A stretch of 64,000 bases of DNA from Candidatus Thorarchaeota archaeon (GTDB taxonomy: Archaea > Asgardarchaeota > Thorarchaeia > Thorarchaeales > Thorarchaeaceae): contig JAWOEX010000021.1 in the NCBI GenBank assembly GCA_046482545.1, positions 201,971 to 265,970 on the forward strand, given 5' to 3'. The notes below the pieces were generated by a model, which worked only from the letters and a program-made list of their open reading frames with translations, was not told where the DNA came from and searched no databases. Positions 54,185-57,170 of the stretch are shown in pieces. Each line of letters starts with the position of its first letter. Position 1 is the first letter of the stretch. The translations under genes were made by a program, and so were the position numbers.

Positions 54185-55423
54185 ATGAATTTTGAAGAGA
54201 CGGACGAACAGCGGATGTTTCGCGAGGCTGTTCGTGACTTCGCAGAGCGCTATGTGGAAGCAGCGTGGCGTGACTACGATAGGAATCACGAAATCCCGCG
54301 CGACATCATCAAGAAGATGGCTGAAATGCAGCTGTGGGCACCCACAGTCTCCGAAGAATACGGAGGCGCAGACCTGTCCATGACTATGGCCTGCATCGCG
54401 GCAGAAGAGCTTGCGAAGGCAGACCTATCAATCGCACTCCCAGTCATGTACCTTGTTGAGGCTTCATGGGCTTTCGTTTTCGACAAGTACGGCACCCACG
54501 AAGCAAAGAGCGAAATCCTGCCCAGAGTTACCGACGGTGACCTCTTCTTTGGCATCGCTACTACCGAGCCAACAGGCGGCTCAGACCTTGTCAACACCAC
54601 CAAGACAATCATCGAACCAAAGGACGACAAGTTCGTGGTCAATGGTGAAAAGGTCTACATCAGCGGAGTCAATGAATCAGAGAAGTACGGCGGTGTCTAC
54701 TGGACCCTAGCAAAGGAAGATCCCAAGGGCGACCACAAAGACTTCACCGCTTTCATTCTGCCCCTCAACATGGGCGACGGACTCCACCCCGGTATTACCA
54801 CAACACTCTTCGAGGACATGGGACGAATGGGTGTCTCCACTGGCGGTTTCAACATCGAAGACGTCGAAATCCCCGAACACTATATCATCGGTGAGCGAGG
54901 GAAAGGCTTCTATCGAGCCATGGGCGGGTTTTCGTTGGCACGAGTTCTTATCGGTGCTACCTGCTTAGGCTCAGCGCAAGCTGCCCTAGATATTGGCATC
55001 GATTATGTCAAGCAGCGCAAGCAGTTCGGCAGACCACTTGCAGCCTTCGAAGGGATACAATTCGAAGGTGTTGATGCGTGGATGGCCCTGCAGGCTGACA
55101 GATTGCTCACGTACAAAGCGGCATGGATGGTAGACCAGTACTATCGAGAAGAAAATCCCAATATTTCCCAGCTGGATATAGCCAAATGGACCGCTGCATC
55201 CAAGTACCGAGCACCACATGATGCTCTAGACGCGATAGAAACTGCCATGACATGGCATGGGGCCTTTGGTTATACGAAGGAATGTCCACTCGAAGCAGCC
55301 TACCGAGGCGTCCGGTCGTACACGGTTGGTGCAGAAGGTGGCAGTCACATCCAAAAAGTGGTAATCGGCAGAGAACTTTTTGGACCTGAGAACCTGCCAT
55401 ATCGCCAAGAGAAGCAGATTTAG
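54185..55423 (+). CDS. Acyl-CoA dehydrogenase
   Basis: EEYGG, TEPTGGSD, NGEK.YIS, GERGKGF, R.QFGRPL..F, HGA.GY..E and catalytic AEG motifs. Confidence 0.95.
   Translation: MNFEETDEQRMFREAVRDFAERYVEAAWRDYDRNHEIPRDIIKKMAEMQLWAPTVSEEYGGADLSMTMACIAAEELAKADLSIALPVMYLVEASWAFVFDKYGTHEAKSEILPRVTDGDLFFGIATTEPTGGSDLVNTTKTIIEPKDDKFVVNGEKVYISGVNESEKYGGVYWTLAKEDPKGDHKDFTAFILPLNMGDGLHPGITTTLFEDMGRMGVSTGGFNIEDVEIPEHYIIGERGKGFYRAMGGFSLARVLIGATCLGSAQAALDIGIDYVKQRKQFGRPLAAFEGIQFEGVDAWMALQADRLLTYKAAWMVDQYYREENPNISQLDIAKWTAASKYRAPHDALDAIETAMTWHGAFGYTKECPLEAAYRGVRSYTVGAEGGSHIQKVVIGRELFGPENLPYRQEKQI
55374..55413 (+). repeat. 40-bp direct repeat, copy 1 (inside the acyl-CoA dehydrogenase 3' end; attL-like)
   Basis: AACTTTTTGGACCTGAGAACCTGCCATATCGCCAAGAGAA, exact match to 57131-57170. 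Confidence 0.95.
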
Positions 55424-55436
55424 ACTAGAAAACGCG

Positions 55437-55481
55437 GAAGGGAACAGGTATAGTTCCCTTCACTCCCTCTTTTTTTTTTTT
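55437..55481 (+). terminator. Hairpin plus T-tract terminator
   Basis: GAAGGGAAC-aggtata-GTTCCCTTC followed shortly by a run of about 12 T. Confidence 0.8.
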
Positions 55482-55522
55482 CAATGAATGGAGAGAAATA
55501 GAACTTCTCAGAAGGGCTGTTG

Positions 55523-55666
55523 CTATCTACTCCTCTTGATTAATCTCTGAATATCACGAGCATCCAGAGTGTAGCCATACTAATCATAGAGCTTCTCACC
55601 TATAGATGCGTACGAGAGTCCATTCCTGCGGCATTCCTTCATGAACTCGATTCCTTCTTCAGGCAT
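55523..55666 (-). pseudogene. Small HTH-like ORF with an internal TAG
   Basis: MPEEGIEFMKECRRNGLSYASIGEKLYD*YGYTLDARDIQRLIKRSR*; TAG at 55580-55582. Confidence 0.5.
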
Positions 55667-55724
55667 AGGATTGGAAAAGGTAAACCTATATAATTATAGA
55701 CATAATAAGAATTGGGAGTTAGTA

Positions 55725-56682
55725 ATGAAGTGTAATCAATTAAAGAAGATTGAGACCGTATTTGTTATACTGATCTTCCTGATTCCAACTGCTAGTTTTT
55801 TTTTTGAGTAGAGTTGTATATTCCAACGATTATGTTAAGGTCGATTTGGAAGAACAATTTCGTGCTGCAGCAGACGGAAGTATTGGAATCAAAGAAAGCA
55901 CAGCAGATGTAGGAGAAATGGTATTCAGCAATAGCGATGTTTCCCTGTATCTTCGAATCCTCAAGGCTGGTCAGCACATCAAGTTAACCTACCTTTCAGA
56001 AGCTGGTGGAAGTCAACTCGAGTTTAGAACAATGCAAATTATGAACGGCTACAGAACCATGATAATCGTGAATGGTCAAAAGATGGCGGATAGAATGTTT
56101 CCACACAACATCTTGGCACCAATAGATGATGGCGATACAAATGAGAGTAGTAGATTCACTACTGCGGGTCTTGAGATAGATGGAGATATTGCTGCCAGCT
56201 ATACATACAGATACTGGGACGGTATCAAGCAGGTGACAGGGCCATCCTATCTCATAAAGTATCATCATCCGGATAGAGCAACTTATGGCATAGGGACATG
56301 GCAAACAGTCACACTGATAGGAAATAACATTGACCATAATCAAATGAGTGAAGCATTATCTGATGTGGCCGCATCAGGTGGTTGGACTATCATATTCGCA
56401 ACAATTGGTGCGGCTATAGGCGGTACACATGGTGCATTCGTAGGTGCCTTATTGGGTGTGCTCTTTGGTTATGCTACGTCTGCAATACTCAAGGATGAAA
56501 ATGGATGTATCTGGTGGTGGTGGGGTCAAGACTATGGCGAATGGTTATTATCGAATATCGGCTGGCTTTCAGCAAGTGGTCCTCTTGGAATGGCTCAGGC
56601 CGCAACACAATTTTGGCTGAATGGCTATCTCAGAGTTGGCTCGGCTACGCTTTACGATGGAATAGGAGCAGGCAACCCATGA
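55725..56682 (+). CDS. Putative secreted glycine-zipper protein, frameshifted at T10 (55796-55805)
   Basis: ATG 55725 gives MKCNQLKKIETVFVILIFLIPTASFFFE*; removing one T fuses it to the 292-aa ORF (318 aa total). Contains IGAAIGGTHGAFVGALLGVLFG. Confidence 0.7.
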
Positions 56683-57113
56683 AATCGATGCATTTGGGAA
56701 GAGATCGATTGAATCAGGTATTCAGCGATAGAACCTTCGTCGGTGGTGCTATTGTTATACTTGCATCTCTAACTCAAGTAACTCTGAGCCTCAGACAGAC
56801 AGATCCGAATGTGGGACCTCATGATTTGCTCGTATTGTTAGTGGATTTTATTTTCTTTTCCGGAGTAATCTTGATAGCTGATGGATATGTCCGAAGAAAA
56901 GGAATAGCAGACATTTGGGTATCAATGGGACTTATCATAGTTGGAGTGCTGGGTATCGGCCTGTATATTGCCTTTGAACCATTGTTCCTCAATTTCGTAT
57001 GGCCTCATACAATCGCTCTACATTTCTACCTATTCAACTCGCTATGGATACTAGCCTCCGGGCTTTTGATACGTGCATTTGAGAGATATAGAACCAAAGA
57101 GAACAAAGACTAA
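56679..57113 (+). CDS. 4-TM membrane protein, candidate immunity partner
   Basis: ATGA start/stop overlap with the upstream gene; 144 aa with four hydrophobic segments. Confidence 0.7.
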   Translation: MKSMHLGRDRLNQVFSDRTFVGGAIVILASLTQVTLSLRQTDPNVGPHDLLVLLVDFIFFSGVILIADGYVRRKGIADIWVSMGLIIVGVLGIGLYIAFEPLFLNFVWPHTIALHFYLFNSLWILASGLLIRAFERYRTKENKD

Positions 57114-57130
57114 CAAAAACATCGCGCGGA

Positions 57131-57170
57131 AACTTTTTGGACCTGAGAACCTGCCATATCGCCAAGAGAA
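57131..57170 (+). repeat. 40-bp direct repeat, copy 2 (attR-like)
   Basis: Exact copy of 55374-55413; continues in the dehydrogenase frame as ...QEKR followed by TAG TAG. Confidence 0.95.

Follow-up and report, generated by a model that had tools for sequence, protein, structure and literature searches.

Inserted cassettes at the 3' end of an acyl-CoA dehydrogenase gene in a Thorarchaeota archaeon, one carrying a proposed toxin/immunity-like gene pair

We analysed a 64,000-nt stretch (hereafter the window) of the 3.05 Mb, 98.9% complete genome of a Candidatus Thorarchaeota archaeon (assembly GCA_046482545.1, contig JAWOEX010000021.1, positions 201,971 to 265,970), in which a 1757-bp unit is inserted at the 3' end of an acyl-CoA dehydrogenase (ACAD) gene. 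The unit carries two overlapping genes, here called A and B, which encode respectively a protein with a conserved glycine-zipper core and a small protein with four predicted transmembrane (TM) spans. Comparison with related genomes leads us to lean towards reading A and B as a toxin/immunity-like pair, and places the insertion in a previously undescribed hotspot of cassettes bounded by copies of the ACAD gene tail.

The ACAD gene (54152..55423, plus strand; Pfam Acyl-CoA_dh_N, _M and _1) is overlapped at its end by the first copy of an exact 40-nt direct repeat, found at 55374-55413 and 57131-57170 with a spacing of 1757 nt and without equal in 100 shuffles of the sequence; the similarity extends at lower identity over 59 nt at 86% and then 31 nt at 71%. 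The original prediction had described such repeats around a 1757-bp unit at the 3' end of a metabolic gene, and its coordinates hold, the gene being ACAD. The final ~18 codons of this gene are both the insertion target and the repeat unit. The upstream tail copy (R1, 55371..55423, plus strand; nhmmer E 1e-17), which contains the repeat at 55374-55413, forms the working 3' end of the gene and ends in LPYRQEKQI before the stop codon; the downstream copy (R2, 57128..57180, plus strand), which contains the repeat at 57131-57170, is a displaced tail ending in LPYRQEKR followed by two stops. In two genomes of the same genus, G388 and G389, whose ACAD orthologues share 80-82% DNA identity with that of the window, the site is empty: the equivalent of window positions 58755-58814 lies directly 3' of the ACAD stop, and the intervening 55424-58754 is thus extra DNA. 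Alignment to both genomes identifies 58755..58814 (plus strand) as the native sequence 3' of ACAD, which begins with what is left of the ancestral tail (GATGTAG) and includes a terminator hairpin. A terminator-like hairpin (GGGAAC..GTTCCC, 55440-55458) with a T12 run at 55470-55481 is also found close behind R1 (55440..55481, plus strand); this region aligns with the native G388 and G389 terminators and with 58755-58814, and is a diverged copy of the native ACAD terminator. The extra DNA consists of the A-B cassette and a second cassette (57181..58754, plus strand) that is missing at the site in G388 and G389, and both start with a diverged copy of the ACAD tail and terminator. The empty sites bear out the earlier proposal of an inserted cassette, and the 1757-bp unit is an insertion. 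Direct repeats duplicating the 3' end of the target gene, as used to recognise integrative elements, are present. The unit itself, which contains an endonuclease-gene remnant, A and B, encodes no integrase; Rfam searches at the repeats of the window and of genome G385 detected no RNA gene, and no tRNA was found at the insertion sites. The 40-nt repeat is shared beyond the A-B cassette, being one unit of a family-wide array of ACAD tails between unrelated cassettes.

Gene B (56679..57113, plus strand) encodes a putative immunity or partner protein of 144 aa with four hydrophobic spans, and is joined to A by the ATGA overlap that had been noted for it. That a variable small TM gene should always lie downstream of A, an expectation of the original prediction, came out positive for all Thor-type loci with downstream sequence and for most other archaeal loci. 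Next to full-length Thor-type A, a 4-TM gene of 127-166 aa follows in every such locus, and behind most A genes of the non-Thor subfamilies lie either members of another 4-TM family or 2-TM genes, in some cases in tandem. Comparison of four B groups by hhalign detected no homology among them, whereas the A core is conserved. Among 86 genomes of the family the B profile matches 25, always with an intact frame, and A is found in 12; intact B occurs without A in at least 13 of these related genomes. Several of these orphans retain traces of A: its last ~40 codons lie directly upstream of B in G363 and G334 (significant matches), and weak traces of the A C-terminus occupy the same place in G341, G357 and G313. 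G385 carries two B genes, which are separated by an A tail that is in frame and has a GNP end. A is broken beside an intact B in the window, in G321, G331 and G315, in Methanoculleus and at further loci, and the reverse case, B broken beside an intact A, was not clearly seen in these loci. By this pattern of occurrence, A is shown to require B, and B not to require A.

The pair extends well beyond the window. A second A-B pair, this one intact, is present on contig C4 of the same genome (A 36-39% and B 27-28% identity). A search of 5.8 billion proteins returned 19 relatives, all from Thorarchaeota or metagenomes, and a profile search of 1.84 billion representatives recovered the C-terminal ~160-residue core of A in 229 clusters, with named genomes from Thorarchaeota, Bathyarchaeia, Geoglobus, Methanomicrobiales, Thermoproteota and Brockarchaeota and one deltaproteobacterial metagenome-assembled genome (MAG). 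The proteins that contain the core bear it at one end or the other, together with additional domains that vary and include the InlB B-repeat (Flg_new_2). Within the phylum, the core is patchily distributed, being present in 15 of 400 genomes and in neither of two from the same genus, frequently as two copies per genome. As other A-B loci are flanked by direct repeats of 39-685 nt that derive from different genes and duplicate their ends, or are arranged in tandem, the pair is evidently mobile in several archaeal phyla. Repeats of 611-685 nt at 95-96% identity flank the pairs at loci L086 and L110; that of L086 contains an open reading frame (ORF) that, judged by eye alone, looks similar to a small subunit of the aconitase family, and L110, with repeats of 611 nt, is the contig of the deltaproteobacterial MAG. 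At four loci from Thermoproteota or Brockarchaeota (L092, L112, L113 and L111), A is split into two overlapping ORFs exactly before the glycine-zipper helix; the split recurs in three or four MAGs and could thus reflect either a genuine two-gene arrangement or programmed frameshifting.

Protein A consists of an N-terminal beta-meander domain and a conserved core with a helix bearing a GxxxG x5 zipper, a DE.GCIWWW motif and a terminus of the form G.GNP; the glycine zipper and the Trp-rich segment, here DENGCIWWWWG, are both found where the original prediction described them. Across 150 sequences the zipper glycines (G202, G206, G210, G214 and G218, at i+4 spacing) are 62-87% conserved and D231, E232 and W237 are near-invariant, with further conservation at W138, D139, Y153, H155, Y161, G173, H178, Y275 and the terminal proline. 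A catalytic Cys-His reading of the protein was ruled out, as C235 is conserved in just 88% of sequences, and some relatives have the cysteine at another position. A first AlphaFold2 (AF2) model built from 16 sequences was poor (mean predicted local confidence, pLDDT, 55.7), and a fold search from it is meaningless. The second, built from the 150 sequences, reached a pLDDT of 82.5 overall and >90 in the core, and lays out a beta-meander at residues 38-99, core strands, a 39-residue helix at 183-221, a short WWWW strand, two helices and two terminal strands. With this model a wide VIA-align search matched the generic N-terminal beta-meander alone (Z <=6). A search of the ESM Atlas gave no lead, all scores being <0.9. 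The Pfam glycine-zipper families PF13441, PF05433 and PF13488 score relatives of A at a sub-threshold 13-18 bits, and PF13441 scores A itself at 15.3 bits against a cut-off of 28.9, below the gathering threshold.

We slightly favour the toxin/immunity-like reading because A depends on B but not the reverse, as is the case for glycine-zipper toxins with orphan immunity genes. Polytopic membrane proteins neutralise depolarising toxins of that type, and the genes for these proteins are also found alone, as orphans, in non-producers (PMC12744356). By analogy, A would be a Sec-type exported protein in which a long hydrophobic helix or hairpin with five zipper glycines is accompanied by a Trp-rich interfacial segment. 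It would insert into membranes, oligomerise via the zipper and permeabilise or depolarise them, and the 4-TM protein B would block A in the producer's own membrane. We infer from this pattern both the toxicity of A and the protection by B. The archaeal toxin/immunity module as first proposed is thus partly supported: three further comparative signatures of such loci were found (orphan B, A remnants before orphan B, and broken A with intact B), and no toxin fold or family matches.

Several points weigh against this reading. Foldseek comparison of the 150-sequence model with PDB and BFVD gave nothing at E <=0.001; of the structural check originally suggested, a confident model of the A core was obtained, and a match to a toxin fold, or to any solved or viral fold, was not. 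Neither A nor B matches a toxin, bacteriocin or defence family in Pfam, NCBIfam, PADLOC or PHROGs, in agreement with the original prediction, which had recognised no family for either. In relatives of A the zipper is interrupted midway by polar indels, which suggest a helical hairpin rather than the single long helix of the AF2 model. A may remain anchored in the producer. It is also more than twice as long as B, and some surplus of broken A is therefore expected by chance. Lastly, accessory genes dominate the other cassettes of the arrays described below, and membership of such an array is thus uninformative on function.

The placement of the core at either end of proteins with variable domains, among them the surface-type Flg_new_2, the export leader and N-terminal beta-meander of A and the lack of a recognised toxin fold would also suit a non-toxic membrane or surface complex, in which the core anchors variable ectodomains and B is an assembly or stabilising partner. 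We consider such a complex unlikely: it fits poorly with the intact B genes of A-less genomes, often behind an A remnant, with the repeated breakage of A next to intact B, with the patchy, multicopy and cassette-borne distribution of the pair, and with B families that are non-homologous between A subfamilies. A module for antiviral defence or abortive infection, or one for exclusion that derives from a virus, in which A would be a depolarising effector restrained by B and freed on infection, seems more improbable still. The pair is mobile and patchy, toxin-antitoxin (TA) cassettes occur in sister arrays, and the variable island around the insertion also holds PDC-S26-like and DrmC-like nuclease genes. 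Against such a module, A and B have no match in PADLOC or PHROGs and A none to a viral fold, the export leader and ectodomain of A fit action from outside the membrane, and the occurrence of B without A is hard to account for if B merely brakes A.

A comparison of A-B with described toxin systems shows both shared features and clear disparities. Like Staphylococcus aureus TspA/TsaI and EsxX/ExiCD and Streptococcus gallolyticus TelE/TipE, the pair combines an extended GxxxG zipper in a hydrophobic helix with an adjacent gene for a small or polytopic membrane protein, which by analogy may make B the immunity protein, and in both cases the known or putative immunity genes are also found as orphans. 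Unlike these systems, A-B is archaeal and has a Sec-type leader, no LXG domain was found in A by Pfam and its loci have no type VII or type VI secretion system context. The zipper of A is embedded in a conserved beta-rich core with invariant H, D, E and W residues, no sequence or fold similarity was detected between A and the TspA, EsxX and TelE type, and TipE and ExiAB are soluble whereas B is a membrane protein. Pore-forming colicins are modular secreted proteins with an insertable hydrophobic helical element and an adjacent immunity gene of 3-4 TM spans, carried on mobile DNA. A-B resembles them in its modular, putatively secreted protein with a hydrophobic helix, its small integral-membrane partner and its mobile DNA, and departs from them in lacking a match to the ten-helix fold, in its gene order and orientation and in having no lysis or translocation machinery. 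Type II TA systems, with their cytoplasmic toxin and soluble antitoxin, differ from A-B, in which members of the A family start with a hydrophobic leader and B has four TM spans. Among archaeocins (halocins H4, C8 and S8, and the sulfolobicins), A would share an archaeal origin, export and a predicted direction to membranes; in halocin H4 a transmembrane region is linked to membrane perforation (bioRxiv 10.64898/2026.07.27.741052). An NCBIfam scan of A and its relatives, which included the halocin C8 model TIGR04449, gave no halocin match at E <=0.1, and the A family belongs to Asgard archaea, Bathyarchaeia, Archaeoglobi, Methanomicrobia and Thermoproteota, not to haloarchaea as the halocins do.

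In the window itself the reading frame of A is interrupted. The leader ORF (55725..55811, plus strand) begins with an ATG at 55725 and runs for 28 codons, Lys-rich and then hydrophobic in the manner of a signal peptide, to a TAG stop at 55809-55811. The body of 292 aa (55804..56682, plus strand) lies in the +1 frame relative to the leader, the two being put out of frame by a T10 run at 55796-55805. The signal-like leader of the original prediction is thus present, but the run length of T9 is not, the sequence reading T10; T9 would join the two frames. In the intact paralogue and in other relatives an in-frame hydrophobic leader is found at the equivalent place. Since the T10 run separates leader from body, A would be off in this genome or expressed solely via slippage, with B intact. 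The T10 could be an assembly error, which would weigh against that view of A here. It is plausible, at somewhat less than an even chance, either that such an error hides an intact A or that the cassette at this site is a mere relic, in which T10 is truly inactivating, A is dead and B persists as a useful orphan immunity gene. The differing frames of leader and body, the frequency of broken A next to intact B at other loci, and the closest relatives, P0003 (72% identity, 292 aa) and P0012 (53%), both called without an in-frame leader, are in keeping with one or the other. Neither the 28-codon leader nor the 292-codon body shows any further defect, however, and T runs this long are rare in the genome, where only 19 A/T runs of >=9 were counted. 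P0003 also starts at the same codon despite a 28% residue difference, which speaks against neutral decay over a long period and would allow for slippage at the T run. The cassette holds two of the 19 genomic runs, the T12 at 55470-55481 and the T10 at 55796-55805.

The ACAD tail that bounds the A-B cassette is widely duplicated in the family. The ~54-nt tail has matches in 56 of the 86 genomes, with several copies in ~30, and forms same-strand arrays in six: G392 (contig C26, loci L144/L145; at least 11 copies), G391 (C47, L146; 8 or more), G376 (C14, L147; 8 or more), G338 (C113, L150; 9), G348 (C155, L148/L037; at least 7) and G363 (3-4). The ACAD gene stands at the head of the array wherever the head was assembled, which is the case in four of the six (G392, G376, G338 and G363). 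Cassettes between the tails are 0.1-7 kb long, lie in both orientations and encode FMN reductases, DUF362 proteins, alcohol dehydrogenases, GNATs, surface proteins and TA pairs (DUF2283/PBECR3 and VapBC). Tail copies are in frame and vary mainly at codon position 3 (1.61, 1.64 and 0.95 bits for the three positions), including CGN/AGR arginine switches, and for this reason each copy has the look of a gene end that was functional at one time. Within the G338 array are copies similar to the native G376 tail, a sign that tails have probably passed between genera. The tyrosine recombinase family PF00589 is absent from the window genome and from three of five array genomes, and was never found near an array; a tyrosine integrase was ruled out as the driver by this absence from the window genome and from the vicinity of the arrays. 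PF00589 matches were obtained in all 14 control genomes.

A trace of a candidate driver lies within the A-B cassette. Between the copied terminator and A, a small minus-strand ORF (55583-55666, 28 aa) continues past an in-frame TAG (55580-55582) to 55526, giving a 47-codon segment (55526..55666, minus strand) homologous to the C-termini of the 605-737 aa LAGLIDADG_3 proteins whose genes converge with ACAD in G371 and G336. The divergent, tiny helix-turn-helix (HTH)-like ORF of the original prediction is thus present; by homology it is what remains of the 3' end of a LAGLIDADG/HTH endonuclease-like gene belonging to the insertion site, and not a regulator of the pair. Intact genes of this kind, with PF14528 above cut-off, lie tail-to-tail with ACAD in G371 (L163:2345-4558, 3 nt apart) and G336 (L164:4352-6172, 100 nt apart). 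In G371 a HerA-like ATPase gene lies upstream of the LAGLIDADG gene. The LAGLIDADG_3 and HTH family is present in 38 of the 86 genomes, in multiple copies and with many fragments and internal stops. Its members are often found tail-to-tail with ACAD, and in at least 10 genomes, representing at least seven genera, no more than ~200 nt separate an ACAD tail from a gene or gene fragment of the family.

We infer that cassettes accrete at this site by recombination between tails, in an endonuclease-assisted, integron-like manner that the LAGLIDADG protein probably stimulates. The A-B cassette would have entered the 3' end of ACAD with its own replacement of the last codons, displacing the older tail downstream. 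In general, each insertion would supply a synonymously recoded replacement tail and leave the old one behind, so that cassettes would pile up behind ACAD, each bounded by a tail copy. The likely driver would be the LAGLIDADG endonuclease-like gene that is natively tail-to-tail with ACAD and is reduced here to its 47-codon remnant. In its fullest form, which we offer tentatively and hold to be rather improbable as a whole, this proposal is one of integrase-free, integron-like capture, in which large LAGLIDADG genes home to the ACAD end, tails are recoded and arrays are exchangeable, and whose recurrent cargo would include a new archaea-wide family of pore-forming zipper toxins, exported and paired with membrane immunity proteins that evolve fast.

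Two results count against the involvement of the endonuclease: a search with the G371 protein did not detect the LAGLIDADG gene in several array genomes, and three further array genomes have no copy near the array. The arrays could also form without a dedicated enzyme, through tail-bearing circles that join by homologous recombination (Campbell type) with the LAGLIDADG gene as a passenger. Such a route is compatible with the lack of any integrase, with the absence of the LAGLIDADG gene from some arrays or its distance from them, with the repeats of 39-685 nt from different genes at other A-B loci, and with the resemblance of tail copies to real gene ends of other lineages. We regard it as a serious alternative, though a less than even one, as a 54-nt segment is short for a shared target across at least 13 genera, the LAGLIDADG gene or a fragment of it adjoins the tail in so many genomes, and its family is multicopy and pseudogene-rich, as selfish endonuclease genes are.

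Endonuclease-assisted accretion would ally the arrays with known systems without matching any of them. Integrase-less elements related to cis-mobilisable elements (CIME-like) accrete in tandem at gene 3' ends. Like these and like integrons, the ACAD arrays have a fixed place and cassettes separated by copies of one recombination-site-like repeat, with the newest insert beside the anchor gene, TA cassettes and a regenerated target end. Unlike integrons, they have no IntI or other tyrosine recombinase, their cassettes lie in both orientations and range over 0.1-7 kb, and their repeats are 54-nt coding gene tails with the frame kept. Where integrons have attC-type imperfect palindromes, a weak imperfect inverted repeat was seen by eye in these tails. 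The Asgard mobile element HeimM2 of Heimdallarchaeum encodes a homing-endonuclease homologue proposed to act in site-specific integration (PMC8813620). With HeimM2 and free-standing homing endonuclease genes the present system shares an endonuclease-family gene beside a conserved gene and a multicopy, pseudogene-rich pattern. It differs from them in its large (605-737 aa) LAGLIDADG and HTH protein, putatively active, in the tail-to-tail position with a metabolic gene, and in its multi-cassette arrays and recoded gene tails.

The surroundings of the A-B cassette contain further genes of note. The second cassette carries a gene (57262-58719) for a 485-aa membrane/zinc-ribbon protein whose N-terminal TM helices are followed by a beta-rich section and, at the C-terminus, by a CxxC..CxxC ribbon, and a 59%-identical relative of this protein lies within an 888-aa open frame on a different contig in G388. 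Just downstream of the cassettes, a PD-(D/E)XK gene at 58921-59541, missing in G389, resembles PADLOC PDC-S26 with an odd C-terminus, and a gene at 60456-61271 for a winged-HTH and phospholipase D-type (PLD) nuclease resembles DrmC; the region with these two genes looks like a variable defence island. Elsewhere in the window, two tRNA-Arg genes (GCG and CCG anticodons) lie on the minus strand at 10453-10529 and 10926-11002, with ~400 nt between them.

Sequence-level knowledge of the weapons that archaea use against other cells is scarce, with halocins H4, C8 and S8 alone described in molecular detail (bioRxiv 10.64898/2026.07.27.741052). If the toxin/immunity-like reading is true, the A-B family would add a membrane-active fold and would open conflict among archaea, across Asgard archaea, Bathyarchaeia, Archaeoglobi, methanogens and Thermoproteota, to direct testing. 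The LAGLIDADG protein and its 54-nt site provide a concrete biochemical target. Through the ACAD-tail arrays, accessory genes such as TA pairs, redox enzymes and surface proteins appear to cross Asgard genera without a recognisable integrase, and the arrays thereby bear on gene flow in the closest prokaryotic relatives of eukaryotes.

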